DNA of 64,000 bases from the NCBI GenBank assembly GCA_963665285.1, contig OY762266.1, forward strand, positions 2,676,156 through 2,740,155. Reading direction: 5' to 3'. This document shows, one piece after another, positions 8,934 to 15,038 of this stretch (within the stretch, counting starts at the first letter, position 1; each line of letters starts with the position of its first letter). This DNA comes from Candidatus Poribacteria bacterium (GTDB lineage Bacteria; Poribacteria; WGA-4E; PCPOR2b). The notes beneath the pieces are model-generated. The model saw only the letters and a list, made by a program, of their open reading frames with translations, searched no databases and had not been told where the DNA came from. The position numbers and the translations under genes are program-made.

Positions 8934-8980
8934 AAAATGAAAAAGCCGTAGAGACACAATATACTGTGCCCCTACGGCTT
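8934..8980 (-). terminator. Rho-independent terminator after leuA
   Basis: Minus-strand stem AAGCCGTAG...CTACGGCTT followed by a U-run, starting about 20 nt after the leuA TAG stop. The loop contains a GTAGGGGCAC REP-like head. Confidence 0.6.
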
Positions 8981-9002
8981 TCTTGTTTATGGATTTCCGA
9001 TC

Positions 9003-10538
9003 CTATTCTTCGTAGCGCAGATGGACAATTTTGTTGATGGCATCAACGTAGGCTTTCGCACTCGCCTCAATAATGTCCGTGCTTGCGCCATGCCCAATGA
9101 TTACATTCCCGTTGTCCTGCACCTTGATCGTGACCTCACCGATGGCATCCTTTCCCTCGGTCACAGCACTGATGTTATAGTCTGTGAGTAGAAGAGGGAT
9201 CTTAGCGACCCGGTCAATTGCTTTGTAGGCTGCATCAACGGGACCATCGCCGGTGGATGCTTCTTCAACGACGCCTGCTTCGGTGCGGACGCCCACCGTC
9301 GTTGTTGGGGAGATTTTCGTTCCGCTGACCACCTGAATGTACTCCAATTGGAAGGTTTCGGGAATCGAGCGGACTTCGTCTCTCATGATTGCCTCAAGGT
9401 CGGCGTCGTGAACCTCTTTTTTCTTATCGGCAACTTCGAGGAAGCGCGCATAGATTTTTTCAATCTGTTCCGGTGTTACCTCATAACCGAGTGCACCCAG
9501 ACGGTGCCTAAGCGCGTTGCGCCCGGAGCGCGGACTGAGGATAATCTGACTCTCCTGCCAGCCAACATCTGCCGGATCAATAATCTCAAAGGTATTTCGC
9601 TGTTTGATAATACCATCTTGATGAATGCCAGAACTGTGTGCAAAAGCATTCGCACCAACAATCGCTTTGTTCGGCTGAACAGGTATTCCCATCGTCCGAC
9701 TGACACGACGGCTAATCGGAACGATTTCTTTCGCATTGATGTCGGTATAGTAGTCGCTGAAATGGTCTCGACGGGTTCGGATTGCCATCACAACCTCTTC
9801 AAGCGATGTATTGCCAGCGCGTTCACCGAGTCCGTTGATTGTGCATTCGACCTGCCTTGCCCCATTTTCAATCGCTTCGAGACTATTGGCAACAGCGAGT
9901 CCGAGGTCATTATGGCAGTGGACACTGATGATTGCCTGATCAATGTTCGGGACATTCGCTTTGATATCTGCGATAAGTTTCCCGAATTCAGACGGCACAG
10001 TCCAACCCACTGTTTCGGGGATATTCACAATCGTTGCTCCCGCCGCAATCGTCGCCTCAACCACTTCATAAAGATAGCTTGGCTCGGTGCGTCCGGCGTC
10101 CATCGGCGAAAATTCGATAGCCGCACCGGGGTGTCCGGCAGATAGGCTCTTCGCGTAGGTGACGGCGTTAATTGCCATTTGCAGCGTCTCTTCGGGAGAG
10201 GTGCGTGTGATACGTTCTCGGTGAATTGGTGATGTGCCGACAAATGTGTGAATACGAGGTTTCCGTGCGTCTTTAATCGCTCCCCATGCCGCAGTGATGT
10301 CCTTCTCAATCACGCGCGAAAGTGCGCAAATTTCCGGACCTTCGACCTCATTGGAGATGCGCGTCACTGCATCAAAATCGCCGGGTGATGAGATGGGGAA
10401 ACCGGCTTCAATAATATCGACGTTCAATTTTGCGAGGTGTTTCGCTATTTCCAGTTTTCCCTCAAGATTCAGCGCAGCACCGGGTGTTTGCTCGGCATCT
10501 CGCAGGGTTGTATCAAAAATATAAACTTTCTCAGACAC
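9003..10538 (-). CDS. leuA: 2-isopropylmalate synthase
   Basis: [24 protein letters not shown] and the C-terminal LeuA dimerisation/regulatory domain. I chose the GTG at 10538 (AAGGAG 9 nt upstream, giving [11 protein letters not shown]). An in-frame GTG/ATG near 10649-10655 with an AGGAGG SD would add about 37 aa. Confidence 0.9.
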
Positions 10539-10754
10539 TGTGTGATTCTCCTTTTTTGTAATTGTGCTATGTTCCGTCCTTTGTTTCAACGATTTCAAAT
10601 TGTCTTCGGTATCACGTAAATCCGGTTCTTCGGTAGCCGTCAACCCCACCTTCATCACCTCCTTTCGTGATGCATGTCGTGATACGTGAAACGTGATAGA
10701 GGATTTTCTTTTGACTCTTTGACCTACTCCTTTTAGACGCACTTATGTTTCACA

Positions 10755-11513
10755 CTACTTTTCAGCCAAAACAATCATCCGCTTTGAATCCCATGTGTAC
10801 TCGCTGCCATCATAGTCGCCGAATACTTGAATCGGTGTAAGACCTGCACGGTTGAGCATTTTCGTGAACTCAGGATAGAAATACAACCGCAAAGTTATGT
10901 GAATTTCTCGCTTGCCACCGTCAGGAGCGATGTAGGTACGGCATTCTTCGTTATTCCCTGTCAGGACATTGTAATCTCGTTTAGTAAGGGCAACTGTACC
11001 ATCTGAAAGTTCGTCCCAGCTTTGAGGGCGAAAATCGCGGATAATTCGCAGAGTATTGAGGAGATCGATGAGGAACTTACCCCCCGGCTTTAACGCTCTC
11101 GCAACGGCGTCGAGGACTTTCTGATTCTCCTCGTCGTCAAAGTAGCCAAAAGCTGTGAACATATTAATGACCGCATCAAACTCACCCTCAAACGGAATCT
11201 CCCTCATATCGGAATGAACGAACTGAATCTGCAAGTTGCACGCTGCTGCCGTATCTCTCGCAAGATCGAGGAAGGTATCTGAGAGATCCTGCCCGACCAC
11301 GGAATAGCCTGCCGCTGCGAGCTCAACTGTGTGCCTACCGTGCCCGCAGCAAAGATCCAAGATCCGCGCACCCCCGGTTGCACCGGGAGCAGCTTGTGGG
11401 AGATTCAGCGTACCGTTGATGAAATCCACCTCTCTTTGGGTTCGCTCAGGCGTAAGCCCCTGTGCATACTCCTTGAGATAATGTTCATCGTAGAAGGTTT
11501 TGTACCATACCAT
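10755..11513 (-). CDS. Class I SAM-dependent methyltransferase
   Basis: Motif I ILDLCCGHGRHTVELA followed by an acidic D in QDLS. About 250 aa Methyltransf_11/25-like layout. Confidence 0.8.
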   Translation of the reverse strand: MVWYKTFYDEHYLKEYAQGLTPERTQREVDFINGTLNLPQAAPGATGGARILDLCCGHGRHTVELAAAGYSVVGQDLSDTFLDLARDTAAACNLQIQFVHSDMREIPFEGEFDAVINMFTAFGYFDDEENQKVLDAVARALKPGGKFLIDLLNTLRIIRDFRPQSWDELSDGTVALTKRDYNVLTGNNEECRTYIAPDGGKREIHITLRLYFYPEFTKMLNRAGLTPIQVFGDYDGSEYTWDSKRMIVLAEK

Positions 11514-11556
11514 GAAGATATTCTCCCTACCCCCTCCGAATGGTCTTTCAAATCGT

Positions 11557-12621
11557 TCAAGCTAGGCTTTTATGTGCAGTCTTAAGCAATGAAGCGGTCG
11601 TGTCCCAATCAATACAACTGTCGGTGACGGAAACGCCGTATTCAAGCGTGGATCGATCAAACCCTGTTAAGTCAGAAGGTATTTTCTGACTTCCAGCGTT
11701 AATATTTGATTCCAGCATAATTCCCACAATCCCATCATTTCCGTCACGAATCTGTTTTAATATCTCCTCAAAAACAATAGGTTGTTTGCTGTAATCTTTC
11801 TCCGAATTTCCGTGACTACAATCTATCACAACATTTGGAGGCAGGTCCTCTTCTGTCAGCATCCCTTGTATATCCTGAACGCTTTGTGAGTCATAATTTG
11901 CGCCCGTATTGCTTCCCCTAATCACAAGATGGGTATATGGATTACCCGTTGTGCACACAACAGACGGAGCACCATATCCATCAATTCCCAGAAAAGAGTG
12001 TTCGCCATTTGCAGATAGAATCGCGTTGACCGCGACGGAGATGTCGCCCTGAGTGCTGTTTTTGAATCCAACGGGCATTGAGAGTCCTGAAGCAAGCTGT
12101 CTGTGTTGTGGCGACTCAGTTGTTCGAGCACCAATCGCCGCCCACGAAACCAGATCAGAATTATATTGAGGCGTGAAGGTTTCAAGATATTCTGTGGCAC
12201 ACGGCAACCCTATTTCAAGATTATCCATCAATATTCTGCGTGAGATATATAAGCCATCTTTGATATCTCCTGCTCCATTTAGATGTGGATCATAGATTAA
12301 ACCTTTCCATCCCAGACTGGTGCGGGGTTTTTCAAAATAAGATCTAACTATAACAACCAAGCGATCCGAGACAGCATCTGAAACCTCTTTCAATTTTGCC
12401 CCATAGTCATGGGCAATCTCTGCATCGTGGATGGAACAGGGTCCAACAATGACGAATTTTCGTGAATCAGTGCCATCCAAGATGTTTCTGATACTTGTTC
12501 TACCATATTGAACTGCCTGCGTCATCGCATCTGTTCTTGGGAGATCTGTGAGCAACTGCCTCGGGCTCATCAAGGTTTGATAGTCTTTGACATTTCTGTC
12601 AATTGTACCGTTGGTCTGCAT
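11557..12621 (-). CDS. aroG: 3-deoxy-7-phosphoheptulonate (DAHP) synthase, class I (AroF/G/H type)
   Basis: Length and motifs of class I-alpha DAHP synthases (GPCSIHD, KPRTS.GWKGL, IGARTTESQ-like). Start ATG 12621 with an AGGAGG SD 10 nt upstream. The isozyme (Phe/Tyr/Trp-sensitive) cannot be told from sequence. Confidence 0.85.
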   Translation of the reverse strand: MQTNGTIDRNVKDYQTLMSPRQLLTDLPRTDAMTQAVQYGRTSIRNILDGTDSRKFVIVGPCSIHDAEIAHDYGAKLKEVSDAVSDRLVVIVRSYFEKPRTSLGWKGLIYDPHLNGAGDIKDGLYISRRILMDNLEIGLPCATEYLETFTPQYNSDLVSWAAIGARTTESPQHRQLASGLSMPVGFKNSTQGDISVAVNAILSANGEHSFLGIDGYGAPSVVCTTGNPYTHLVIRGSNTGANYDSQSVQDIQGMLTEEDLPPNVVIDCSHGNSEKDYSKQPIVFEEILKQIRDGNDGIVGIMLESNINAGSQKIPSDLTGFDRSTLEYGVSVTDSCIDWDTTASLLKTAHKSLA

Positions 12622-12643
12622 TATTTCGCTGCCTCCTATAGAC

Positions 12644-12684
12644 AAAAAAAACGCCCACCATCGAACCTGTTTTCGATGATGGGC
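12644..12684 (-). terminator. Strong intrinsic terminator in the aroG leader (attenuator)
   Basis: Minus-strand RNA GCCCAUCAUCGAA / UUCGAUGGUGGGC forms a 13-bp stem with one G-U, followed by 8 U. It ends 23 nt upstream of the aroG ATG. Confidence 0.75.
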
Positions 12685-12714
12685 ATCAATGAATAACCGA
12701 ATGTGGGATAATCT

Positions 12715-12840
12715 CTACATCTTCGATGCGAAGTCTACCCGCCCACCATCGCAGCACAAATACAACAAAAAGAGATAGAGATAAAGGAAGTACAGTGTTG
12801 TTTGGTATGCGATGTGGGTATGTGGGTAGAAATTATTCAT
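12715..12840 (-). CDS. Candidate Tyr/Phe-rich leader peptide of the aroG attenuator
   Basis: 41-codon ORF MNNFYPHTHIAYQTTLYFLYLYLFLLYLCCDGGRVDFASKM with 6 Tyr and 4 Phe. Codons CDGGR contain a 12-nt copy of the terminator 3' arm. There is no clear SD, which lowers confidence. Confidence 0.4.
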   Translation of the reverse strand: MNNFYPHTHIAYQTTLYFLYLYLFLLYLCCDGGRVDFASKM

Positions 12841-12925
12841 GACTATTTCTTTTAGGTGTACCAATAGCCAAGTATCCAATCACTTGACCTTATTGGAGTA
12901 TGATTTCGTTAATATATCTGCCGTA

Positions 12926-13210
12926 TTAGTCAGCCGCCTGATCCACCGGCGCGATGCCGCGCGGTGCAGGAGCACCTCTTAGTAAACCCTCCGTGCTTAA
13001 ATCTTCATCAATGTCTGGCCAATGAATCCCACAGCCACCGCCGCATATCTGCCAATTTGCCCGTTGCCCTGGCGTCGCATGAAGGAGTTTAGGATACCAT
13101 ACCAACGGCACGATAATGGTACGTCCATCAATGAGGTTAACGCTTAAGGTGTCTTCAGTGACGTGTACATCTTTGACACCTTCACCCGGTTTAATGTCCG
13201 AAGTAGTCAT
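12926..13210 (-). CDS. DUF2442 domain protein
   Basis: 94 aa. The pattern ...V.V.L.DGR.I.VPL.WYP.L..A....R..W...G.G..I.WPDIDEDLS.EGLL is typical of DUF2442. Sits in the usual pairing downstream of a DUF4160 gene. Confidence 0.75.
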   Translation of the reverse strand: MTTSDIKPGEGVKDVHVTEDTLSVNLIDGRTIIVPLVWYPKLLHATPGQRANWQICGGGCGIHWPDIDEDLSTEGLLRGAPAPRGIAPVDQAAD

Positions 13211-13427
13211 GCCACGCCTCTAAAAGTTCTTGTTCATGTTCAGCTATTATCCGTTCTATTCTGCGGAGCTCTCTTGAGCTGAAGCTAAGATTGCGGGCGA
13301 AGCGAACAGGTTTAAGCCAGAACTTGGCTGAATTGGCATCACGAACCTAATGAACATGTGGTGGTTCATTAGGTTCGTGACTCCAGAAGTATATGCGATA
13401 CGGACCAATCCTCAGAGCAGTTGGCAT
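13191..13427 (-). pseudogene. DUF4160 family gene interrupted by an in-frame TAG
   Basis: Translates as MPTALRIGPYRIYFWSHEPNEPPHVH*VRDANSAKFWLKPVRFARNLSFSSRELRRIERIIAEHEQELLEAWHDYFGH, a single frame with TAG at 13347-13349. Overlaps the DUF2442 start by 20 nt. Missed by the ORF track because both halves are under 60 aa. Confidence 0.75.
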
Positions 13428-13503
13428 CGTTCAAAGCCTCGTCTGAATAACAAACGGTTATATCTTAACAAACCGATTGACAAGATGTCAAGATAATTTT
13501 CTG

Positions 13504-13532
13504 TTGACAACCCTTTTTCTGGGTGTTATAGT
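13504..13532 (+). promoter_or_regulatory. Sigma-70-like promoter for the 13623 gene
   Basis: TTGACA (13504-13509), a 17-nt spacer, then TATAGT (13527-13532). An upstream palindrome TTGACAAGATGTCAA (13477-13491) could be an operator. Confidence 0.5.
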
Positions 13533-13622
13533 TAAATTTGGAGCGTGGGTAACACAGATTAAGCAAGATTCTAAGGATTAAAGCATCAGAAGAATCCAAC
13601 AATCCCGATAAAGGAGTTTTCG

Positions 13623-15038
13623 TTGAACGCTGAAGAAAAGTGTCTATTTCTCAACAGTCAGATTCCCAAAGGGGGACTCTTCACCGGTGAGCAGAAGACC
13701 GTTCACCCCGATAGCAATGTAACGTGGCGGATTTCGCCGGAGCCATTTTGGATTCTTCAAGAACACTTGGACTGGCTTGAGGAACTTGGACCGCATCTAT
13801 TGCGGTTCTACAAAGCCTGTAACCTGCTCTATTCGCAGAGCGTACGTGGTATTCAGCCGGATTGGGTTGCAGCATACCTTGATCAGGGGAAGCCTGAGTC
13901 TGTGATAGAACTCGGACGGATGAATCGGTTCAAGAGTCAACTTCCGCAAGTTATTCGTCCTGACATTCTGCCGACTCCCGACGGCTTTACCATCACCGAA
14001 TTGGATTCTGTCCCCGGCGGTATGGGATTTACGGGCAGCCTATCAACCCAATACGCCAAACTCGACTACGACATCATTGGCGGCAGCAATGGGATGCAAC
14101 TCGCTTTTGCGGAGATGGTCAGGTCGCTAGCGAAGGTTGAACAACCAACAGTAGCGATTGTCGTATCCGATGAATCAGCGGATTATTGGGACGAGATGAA
14201 GTGGCTAGAATCGGCACTGCGAGAGGTAGGTTTGGCTGCCTACACAGTCAAACCCCGCGACGTGATTTTCACGGAAGACGCGCTGTTCCTTGAATCGGAG
14301 GAGGGAAGAACCCAGATTGATGTTCTTTACCGCTTCTTTGAATTGTTTGATCTGAAGAACATCCCCAAAGCAGAGTTGATGCTCTACGGTGCCAAAAGGC
14401 GAACCGTAGTGATGACCCCACCGCCGAAGACATACCTTGAAGAAAAGCTGCTGTTTGCCCTGTTTCATCATCCAGCTCTCCAACCTTTCTGGAAAAGAGA
14501 GCTTGGCAAGAAAACCTACCAATTTCTACCGAGCATCATCCCACAGACATGGCTGCTCGATCCGCGCGAACTACCACCACATGCCGTCATTCCAGACCTT
14601 GAGATCGATGGACTTCCTGTCACAAACTGGCGGCAAATCATCCCTGTCTCGCAACGTCAGCGTGAACTGGTCCTCAAGCCCTCAGGATTCTCCGAATTGG
14701 CATGGGGCAGTCGTGGGGTTTCAATCGGACATGATCTCCCCACCGAAGATTGGGAACATGTAGTGGAAAACGCGCTGATCGACTTTGGTCAAACCCCCTA
14801 TGTCCTGCAAAAATTCCATAGAGCAGAACGCCTCACCATGACCTACTACGATTTCGAGCAGCGCGAAGTTCAAAGAATGCCGGGGCGAGCGATAATCCGT
14901 CCCTACTACTTCACAATGGGCGACAAGGTACGCCTCGCTGGGATTCAAGCGACCGTCTGCCCCGAAGACAAAAAAATCCTGCACGGAATGGTCGATTCGA
15001 TTATCGCACCGTGCGCGGTTAAACCTGAGACATGGTGA
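13623..15038 (+). CDS. Hypothetical protein, possibly ATP-grasp-like (glutathionylspermidine-synthase or circularly permuted ATP-grasp type)
   Basis: TTG start with an AAAGGAG SD. The segment RPDILPTPDGFTITELDSVPGGMGF resembles the nucleotide-binding strand of ATP-grasp ligases. The assignment is weak. Confidence 0.3.
   Translation: MNAEEKCLFLNSQIPKGGLFTGEQKTVHPDSNVTWRISPEPFWILQEHLDWLEELGPHLLRFYKACNLLYSQSVRGIQPDWVAAYLDQGKPESVIELGRMNRFKSQLPQVIRPDILPTPDGFTITELDSVPGGMGFTGSLSTQYAKLDYDIIGGSNGMQLAFAEMVRSLAKVEQPTVAIVVSDESADYWDEMKWLESALREVGLAAYTVKPRDVIFTEDALFLESEEGRTQIDVLYRFFELFDLKNIPKAELMLYGAKRRTVVMTPPPKTYLEEKLLFALFHHPALQPFWKRELGKKTYQFLPSIIPQTWLLDPRELPPHAVIPDLEIDGLPVTNWRQIIPVSQRQRELVLKPSGFSELAWGSRGVSIGHDLPTEDWEHVVENALIDFGQTPYVLQKFHRAERLTMTYYDFEQREVQRMPGRAIIRPYYFTMGDKVRLAGIQATVCPEDKKILHGMVDSIIAPCAVKPETW

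Follow-up and report, generated by a model that had tools for sequence, protein, structure and literature searches.

Does the short, aromatic-rich open reading frame that precedes a DAHP synthase gene in this Poribacteria genome serve as the ribosome-read sensor of a transcription attenuator and, if it does, which genes would it control and which amino acids would it report on? We followed this question in a 64,000-nucleotide stretch of DNA (the window) and in the single-contig, 6.26-Mb genome from which it comes; all coordinates of the locus are window positions on the minus strand. We consider it highly probable, from the comparisons described below, that a four-segment, ribosome-mediated attenuator controls an aroF(-methyltransferase)-leuA unit.

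The leader, its terminator and the genes downstream

The elements of the leader region, in the direction of transcription, are as follows.

12715..12840, minus: leader ORF, 41 codons plus TAG (ATG at 12840, TAG at 12717-12715)
12808..12829, minus: segment 1 (CUACCCACAUACCCACAUCGCA), predicted anti-antiterminator strand, codons 4-11, from the minimum free energy (MFE) fold
12757..12795, minus: regulatory run of codons 16-28, L-Y-F-L-Y-L-Y-L-F-L-L-Y-L, placed for the most part in the apical loop of the 1:2 hairpin
12734..12753, minus: segment 2 (UGCGAUGGUGGGCGGGUAGA), partner of segment 1 or segment 3, from repeat search and folding
12713..12733, minus: small hairpin holding the last codons and the TAG stop, with compensatory changes at four pairs across genera
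12705..12711, minus: UUAUCCC, alternative partner of GGGUAGA in the antiterminated fold, from the fold of 12756-12671
12672..12684, minus: segment 3, the terminator 5' arm and antiterminator 3' strand (2:3 pairing 100% over 242 cells)
12653..12665, minus: segment 4, the terminator 3' arm (terminator 98.7% paired)
12644..12651, minus: U8 tract, read from the sequence

Of the 41 codons of the leader peptide, MNNFYPHTHIAYQTTLYFLYLYLFLLYLCCDGGRVDFASKM, 6 specify Tyr and 4 Phe; a 30-nt spacer separates the leader stop from the terminator stem, exactly as a first-pass annotation of this DNA had described. Its 13-codon core run comprises 7 Leu, 4 Tyr and 2 Phe, with no other residue. Among the 133,412 open frames of 25-90 amino acids in the 6.26-Mb genome, this leader is the only one with a 13-residue window made up entirely of L, Y and F, and just 0.35% of those frames carry at least six Y/F within 13 residues. 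Because half of the run is leucine, the leader's amino-acid specificity is not clean. The annotation had regarded the missing Shine-Dalgarno (SD) sequence as a weakness. The SD is indeed weak in the source genome (AAAGAAAUAGUC-AUG), but this seems to be a peculiarity of the window, since orthologous leaders at nine loci carry AAGAGG 4-5 nt before the leader ATG.

The terminator consists of GCCCAUCAUCGAA (12684-12672), a 6-nt loop, UUCGAUGGUGGGC (12665-12653) and the U8 tract (12651-12644), which ends 22 nt before the aroF ATG. Its stem is 13-16 bp long and its energy (3:4) is −23.9 kcal/mol; the coordinates of the 13-bp hairpin with 8 U, ahead of the DAHP synthase SD, were reproduced. The annotation had further proposed that the terminator 3' arm is repeated exactly inside the leader ORF and that this upstream copy can pair with the terminator 5' arm, and both proposals held. 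Within the window the 12-nt sequence CGATGGTGGGCG has exactly two occurrences, 12652-12663 and 12740-12751, and 12750-12740 can form 11 standard pairs with 12684-12674, mutually exclusive with the terminator. This arrangement of ORF, terminator and repeat is more than chance. The genome holds 290 strong intrinsic terminators, 104 of which precede an ORF; among these 104, only the terminator of the aroF leader has an upstream copy of its own 3' arm.

The annotation had described a three-part element that lacked segment 1. In our models the element is a full four-segment architecture (1:2, 2:3 and 3:4). In the MFE fold, segments 1 and 2 form a hairpin of −30.7 kcal/mol that places the Tyr, Phe and Leu codons in a 28-nt apical loop and in the upper stem, and a fold containing 2:3 has an energy of −31.1 kcal/mol. 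The leader folds better than all 200 shuffled sequences (z = −4.3). Within the antiterminated fold, UUAUCCC (12705..12711), which is conserved in genus g1, is predicted to pair with GGGUAGA.

When the RNA was folded at equilibrium with a ribosome mask, the terminator won whichever region was masked. Equilibrium folding was dropped as a test of the switch, since it cannot discriminate when the terminator is always favored, and the same result implies that the switch must be kinetic, with read-through resting on unproven kinetics, as in trp. The nascent transcript was instead folded only as far as segment 3, at the moment of its emergence. The mean P(2:3) was 0.00 when segment 1 was free; when segment 1 lay under or behind the ribosome, it was 0.95-1.00 at all stall positions from codon 5 through codon 27. 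The two alternative structures called for by the annotation (2:3 and 3:4) are predicted, as is 1:2, and masking segment 1 shifts the nascent RNA to 2:3.

The genes that would be controlled by this switch, and the terminator that follows them, are listed here.

11557..12621, minus: class I-alpha DAHP synthase, AroF-like (PF00793, 7e-78; TIGR00034, 422 bits; SD GGAGG at 12636-12632)
10755..11513, minus: SAM methyltransferase, optional and situated between aroF and leuA, from domain search
9003..10538, minus: leuA, 2-isopropylmalate synthase (TIGR00973, 689 bits)
8940..8983, minus: strong terminator with a 20-bp stem after leuA, from terminator prediction

The best PDB matches of the DAHP synthase are Tyr-sensitive E. 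coli AroF (6AGM, 1e-102) and Tyr-regulated yeast Aro4 (1HFB). In the alignment, FLG(212)I of the query lies opposite FVGI of AroF and FMG(226)V of Aro4, so that Gly212 corresponds to Aro4 Gly226. Hartmann et al. in 2003 are said to have found that Gly226 of Aro4 decides between inhibition by Tyr and inhibition by Phe, and we take Gly212 to be the equivalent position. The enzyme had been named aroG; its closest solved structures and the alignment at Gly212 point instead to a tyrosine-feedback type, for which "aroF-like" is the better label. A Tyr-type enzyme fits a leader dominated by Tyr. A second DAHP synthase, of the I-beta type, is encoded elsewhere in the genome, and no type II DAHP synthase was found in the genome.

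Downstream of aroF, leuA is found in every genus, and in locus L011 the two genes lie only 29 nt apart. The methyltransferase is absent or partial in L009, L011, L015 and L019 and in three of the four g5 loci (L021, L024 and L025). No terminator was predicted between aroF and leuA. The unit probably extends through aroF(-methyltransferase)-leuA, with leuA as its last gene. In most genomes leuA is also preceded by about 200 nt of conserved spacer that has a strong SD of its own and TCACG repeats, an arrangement suggestive of separate control of leuA.

Conservation of the element among relatives

Among 61 related genomes, 25 yielded an orthologue of the DAHP synthase; all 25 belong to one family, and the regions upstream of these genes were aligned. 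The leader, the repeat and the terminator lie upstream of the aroF-type gene in genera g1, g4 and g5; in the aligned regions from g3 and g7 they do not lie directly upstream of it. An in-frame start and a TAG stop are kept in all 23 distinct orthologous leaders, across three genera. The ORFs are 29, 39, 41, 42, 43 or 50 codons long, and their length differences are all multiples of three nucleotides; beyond the stop, the spacer (28-30 nt) differs by 1-2 nt. A deletion in L009 has joined the leader, still in frame, to the start codon of DUF2442. Such frame-preserving length changes, together with the kept start and stop codons, show what appears to be selection on translation of the leader.

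Pairing is conserved along with the frame. The antiterminator 2:3 is paired in 22 of 22 sequences (242 of 242 cells), and the changes that do occur in it are all one-sided transitions that are wobble-compatible with both partners. Across the relatives, pairing amounts to 98.7% in the terminator and to 88-89% of cells in the 1:2 helices, with the 1:2 helix weak or absent in genus g5. No two-sided compensatory change was found in 2:3 or 3:4 in the alignment of relatives, because the segments that form them are almost invariant; support for these helices therefore comes from complete conservation of pairing. Frozen segments are to be expected here, since segments 2 and 3 each have two alternative partners to fit. 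The search for aromatic-rich mini-ORFs upstream of orthologous genes, which the annotation had recommended, thus found them conserved in 23 distinct leaders from three genera, with pairing intact in 22 of 22.

An exact-pattern scan of the genomes of 185,579 species with the segment-2 region returned 22 matches, all in Poribacteria MAGs and apparently in genomes already analyzed, as judged by their identical leader peptides. More distant members therefore had to be sought with a covariance model.

A family of leaders with different codon runs

The chassis was searched for with a leader profile (nhmmer) and with a covariance model. In the source genome, the profile found two paralogous copies of the segment 2-3-4 chassis. 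Ahead of ileS is the leader VLYSLPAHRSIRETESRNIRLFIGIISIIISIPSCDGGLMQTT, with 8 Ile, and ahead of leuS the leader MYCPQLINNRFSSRISRFLNLTLLRLCLALALLRVVGGSAPD, with 10 Leu. The folding of both follows the same 1:2 logic. The reading frame through segment 2 differs in the leuS leader (RVVGG vs. CDGG), which argues for conservation at the level of the RNA.

The covariance model matched all 29 genomes of the family with 1-5 hits each, some of them echoes of hairpins on the opposite strand. Tyr/Phe-rich leaders precede the I-beta DAHP synthase in g2, g3, g6 and g7, and in g7 the order is leader, I-beta gene, aroF, methyltransferase and leuA. Other matches were a Tyr-rich leader before tyrS, a Thr/Ile-rich leader before thrS, Ile/Leu-rich leaders before cimA and a Leu-rich leader before a leuA-like gene. 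For 15 of 16 family members, the predicted partner of segment 2 is a stretch at codons 4-12. Within one genome, segments 2, 3 and 4 are nearly identical among paralogs; the shared parts are ..CCCAC.. in segment 1, GAUGGUGGGC in segment 2, GCCCAUCAUCGA in segment 3, and CGAUGGUGGGC in segment 4 followed by a U run. We think it likely that one ancestral chassis was duplicated and re-coded within the Poribacteria, with the codon run alone being swapped, and that at least five amino-acid groups are sensed in this way. That the codon run repeatedly matches the cognate gene while the RNA chassis stays constant is the strongest argument for the ribosome as the sensor.

Two other leader regions were seen in the source genome. 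The genes hisI-trpE-trpG follow a leader unrelated in sequence, MQTLNRQPQFQIVSHHWHWWWHRVEGSSVPLLR, which contains 4 His and 4 Trp and is accompanied by a promoter, an SD and a terminator; the presence of this leader implies that the organism uses leader-peptide attenuation more generally. The pheS gene is preceded by the T-box motif GGGUGGUACCGCG and a terminator, a putative T-box on the grounds of its sequence.

A further question is which of the codons in the aroF leader are read. In a multivalent variant of the attenuator, the seven interleaved Leu codons would be sensed as well, so that the leader would report on the supply of Tyr, Phe and Leu for a mixed aroF-leuA operon. The absence of any residue other than Leu, Tyr and Phe from the core speaks for this variant, as do the constant position of leuA after aroF, the close spacing of the two genes in L011 and the location of the strong terminator after leuA and not between the genes. 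The His/Trp leader of hisI-trpE-trpG is a parallel for mixed sensing in the same genome, and the Ile and Leu paralogs use varied filler residues (G, S, N, T, R and A) and not Leu throughout. However, all aromatic-type leaders, that of tyrS among them, have an LLYL motif just before segment 2, and Leu as a third signal was downgraded for this reason. The 1:2 helix also takes in part of the LLYL stretch (UUGUUGUA), Leu is the commonest residue anyway, and the spacer before leuA in most genomes, with its own SD and repeats, does not favor a simple mixed operon. We regard the sensing of Leu as possible but rather unlikely.

A different view is that the real switch is set by a protein, an uncharged tRNA or a small molecule that acts on the leader RNA, and that the ORF is incidental. 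The near identity of segments 2-4 among paralogs could reflect such a common factor, but the three-way pairing constraint is sufficient to account for a frozen sequence. Moreover, neither the aroF leader nor its paralogs gave an Rfam match, T-box included, at E values up to 10, and the frame-keeping lengths and conserved start and stop codons indicate selection on translation. Since only the codon run differs between paralogs, and it does so in accord with the cognate gene, a common factor could not provide amino-acid specificity. We judge this view improbable.

Still less probable, in our estimation, is that the 41-residue peptide is itself functional, as a small membrane protein or toxin, or acts through nascent-peptide arrest. 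The ORF is under selection and TTLYFLYLYLFLLYLCC forms a hydrophobic stretch of about 17 residues. Yet a comparison of g1, g4 and g5 found the peptide poorly conserved beyond the codon run and the part constrained by the RNA, paralogs replace the run by Ile, Leu or Thr, and the ORF overlaps the strands of the switch exactly as in known attenuators.

The upstream region, the proposed mechanism and related systems

Two features upstream of the leader bear on where its transcript would begin.

13462..13491, minus: sigma-70-like promoter, TTGACA-18-TAAGAT, from a promoter scan and a motif shared with relatives
12926..13427, minus: DUF4160 (in-frame TAG at 13349-13347) and DUF2442 cassette (Pfam DUF2442, 2.8e-23)

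The promoter at 13491-13462 is the only good promoter-like site on the minus strand, and it lies upstream of DUF4160, so that in the source genome the presumed promoter is about 650 nt from the leader, with two small genes between. In eight relatives without the cassette, the promoter motif TTGACAYCYTRTC and its flanks are found 71-123 nt upstream of the leader ATG; in relatives with DUF4160/DUF2442, the distance is 538-660 nt. Since relatives devoid of the cassette have the same promoter, DUF4160/DUF2442 is an optional insert in the 5' UTR, and the promoter at 13491-13462 most likely drives the leader. The annotation had been concerned about whether transcription starts upstream of the leader, a concern that is eased by this predicted promoter and its conserved distance in the eight relatives. 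The idea, also raised there, that the hairpin merely terminates the DUF4160/DUF2442 transcript, with the aromatic ORF and the repeat arising by chance, is exceedingly unlikely: although it is the first terminator downstream of DUF2442 and the scan found no promoter-like site above its threshold between DUF2442 and the leader, at least eight relatives without the cassette keep the promoter, leader, repeat and terminator, conservation of the element extends to three genera, copies of the chassis stand before cognate genes elsewhere, and both the repeat and the L/Y/F run are unique genome-wide.

Ribosome-mediated attenuation by the leader ORF, as the annotation had suggested, is strongly supported by comparative evidence: the conserved ORF and frame, the fully conserved antiterminator pairing and the paralogs re-coded to match their cognate genes. 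We propose that transcription would start at 13491-13462 and, in the source genome, first cross the DUF4160/DUF2442 cassette, after which a ribosome would translate the 41-codon leader. When charged Tyr- and Phe-tRNA are plentiful, the ribosome would reach the TAG and leave, allowing segment 1 (12829-12808) to pair with segment 2 (12753-12734). Segment 3 would then be free to pair with segment 4, and polymerase would stop at U8. When these charged tRNAs are scarce, the ribosome would stall on codons 17-27; because these codons lie in the loop of the 1:2 hairpin, the stalled ribosome would block that hairpin. Segment 2 would remain free and pair with segment 3 as soon as the latter is transcribed, no terminator would form, and polymerase would read into aroF and on to leuA. 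If there is no translation at all, 1:2 would form and transcription would terminate. The leader thus would most likely raise expression of the aromatic-pathway/leucine operon when charged tRNA is short.

This scheme departs at one step from that of the first-pass annotation, in which a ribosome reaching the stop codon would strip the antiterminator. Segment 2 ends 24 nt upstream of the leader stop and would not be covered by such a ribosome; in place of stripping, segment 1 would re-sequester segment 2 after the ribosome has passed. We infer the stalling of the ribosome, the kinetic choice between 2:3 and 3:4, the use of the promoter and the co-transcription of leuA from the sequence.

The scheme resembles the attenuators of E. 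coli trpL-trpEDCBA and pheL-pheA, which also use 1:2, 2:3 and 3:4 pairing, terminate when translation is complete or absent, and have a terminator that is thermodynamically favored over the antiterminator, so that the choice is kinetic (PMC11802643). Unlike in trpL and pheL, however, the regulatory codons of the Poribacteria leader are in the loop between segments 1 and 2 and not inside segment 1, the position of the stop beyond segment 2 would leave that segment unmasked by a terminating ribosome, and the leader, at 41 codons, is longer.

The first-pass annotation knew of no described leader with mixed Tyr and Phe codons before a DAHP synthase gene, but there is a precedent in C. glutamicum. 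In aroR-aroF, a Phe-Tyr-Phe leader controls a DAHP synthase gene (Neshat et al. 2014, as summarized in PMC11802643) and reportedly responds to Phe and not to Tyr. The two systems share a short, mixed Phe/Tyr ORF before a DAHP synthase gene, with stalling that raises, or in Poribacteria would raise, read-through. In contrast to the compact aroR tripeptide, the Poribacteria leader has 4-6 Tyr and 2-4 Phe over 12 codons, interleaved with Leu. The two come from different phyla and have no detectable sequence relationship; moreover, the Poribacteria enzyme appears to be of the tyrosine type, the operon would continue to leuA, and the chassis is shared with leaders of aminoacyl-tRNA synthetase genes. 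Since the mechanism has been textbook knowledge since trp and a Phe/Tyr leader of a DAHP synthase gene is known in Corynebacterium, the locus adds a lineage and not a principle.

Leader-peptide attenuators are likewise known or predicted for aminoacyl-tRNA synthetase genes, such as pheM-pheST in gamma-proteobacteria and trpS and leuS in Streptomyces (Seliverstov et al. 2005, PMC1262725). Copies of the Poribacteria chassis similarly appear to control ileS, leuS, tyrS and thrS through cognate codons. Unlike in those examples (PMC1262725), one chassis would serve both synthetase and biosynthetic genes, with at least five specificities in one family. We found no description in the literature of one chassis shared by synthetase and biosynthetic genes, and no paper on attenuators in Poribacteria. 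Rfam covariance models, among them Phe_leader, Trp_leader, His_leader and T-box, gave no relevant match in 11000-14500 at E values up to 10, and a permissive Rfam search of the ileS, leuS and hisI leaders returned no relevant family. The aroF leader appears to work like the Rfam leader families yet belongs to none of them by sequence.

T-box riboswitches contact tRNA directly, and their regulon consists of aminoacyl-tRNA synthetase and amino-acid biosynthesis genes. The Poribacteria chassis shares with them this regulon logic, a terminator/antiterminator output and paralogs that are re-specified by few nucleotides, but its proposed sensor is the translating ribosome, not direct contact with tRNA.

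The locus provides evidence on how entry into aromatic amino-acid synthesis is controlled in an uncultivated phylum of sponge symbionts. Natural variants of it occur as well: some carry a cassette inserted in the 5' UTR, L009 has the in-frame fusion, and the L004 allele has lost segment 2, the antiterminator strand. Its most interesting aspect is the modular re-coding of one chassis. Reuse of a switch with swapped codon runs amounts to a natural experiment on how the specificity of attenuators evolves, and an RNA switch whose codon run can be exchanged is a modular part for synthetic biology. If the proposal is true, the re-coded family in Poribacteria would play the part that falls to the T-box regulon in Firmicutes, but would be read by the ribosome.

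Neighbourhood of the aroF leader

Two minus-strand features of the window flank the leader and its gene for AroF-like DAHP synthase:
12926-13427, minus strand: a DUF4160/DUF2442 gene pair, an optional cassette of ~560 nt that separates the aroF leader from the promoter
10539-10755, minus strand: a conserved spacer preceding leuA, with TCACG repeats at 10661-10702

The DUF4160/DUF2442 cassette is missing from at least eight relatives, and in the window its DUF4160 frame is interrupted by an in-frame TAG at 13349-13347 (..PPHVH*VRD..). Downstream, AGGAGGUGAUG in the leuA spacer starts an in-frame extension of 39 codons (MKVGLTATEEPDLRDTEDNL...) upstream of the leuA GTG at 10538. This extension is kept across genera and deleted in L011, a locus from a relative in which aroF and leuA are separated by 29 nt; it could serve as a second start or as a control region of its own.

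Further observations come from related Poribacteria. In the L004 leader (genome G019), a natural 30-nt in-frame deletion takes out segment 2, the antiterminator strand, leaving 29 codons with a GTG start. We predict that the L004 allele terminates constitutively, barring an assembly error in G019, a 260-contig draft. An additional terminator-chassis copy lies at L084:300-420 in G007, ~6 kb upstream of that genome's aroF, and has similar matches in G008, G009, G010 and G011. It contains a short ORF, MLGKLLRLCYESGRVRTRMEEVEIFPH, with no clear codon run, and precedes a 173-aa protein that had no NCBIfam match.

Leaders of ileS, leuS and pheS

In G000, the genome containing the window, the attenuator chassis of aroF recurs as two paralogous copies:
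L051:298-409: Ile-rich leader before ileS
L052:261-377: Leu-rich leader before leuS

Neither leader matched an Rfam family. Separately, a T-box-like motif, AAUAAGGGUGGUACCGCGG, was noted from sequence upstream of pheS (contig C1, ~4594384, minus strand), where it is immediately followed by a strong terminator and then the start of pheS. G000 would thus regulate pheS by a T-box, in contrast to the leader peptides of ileS and leuS.

A His/Trp leader before hisI-trpE-trpG

G000 has few strong intrinsic terminators, defined as a hairpin with an energy of at most −11 kcal/mol ahead of a run of six or more T: only 290 in the whole 6.26-Mb genome. Several of the best are located in 5′ leaders. A further leader was found before a biosynthetic operon:
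L053:92-262 (G000 C1:2303192-2303362): candidate leader-peptide attenuator upstream of hisI-trpE-trpG (L053:293-2793)

In L053 the order is a sigma-70-like promoter, the SD GGAAGG, an ORF and then a terminator. The ORF encodes MQTLNRQPQFQIVSHHWHWWWHRVEGSSVPLLR followed by a stop, with four His and four Trp residues interleaved. We regard this leader as a second attenuator candidate in G000, unrelated to the aroF chassis. A mixed his/trp operon mirrored by a His/Trp leader is an unusual arrangement.
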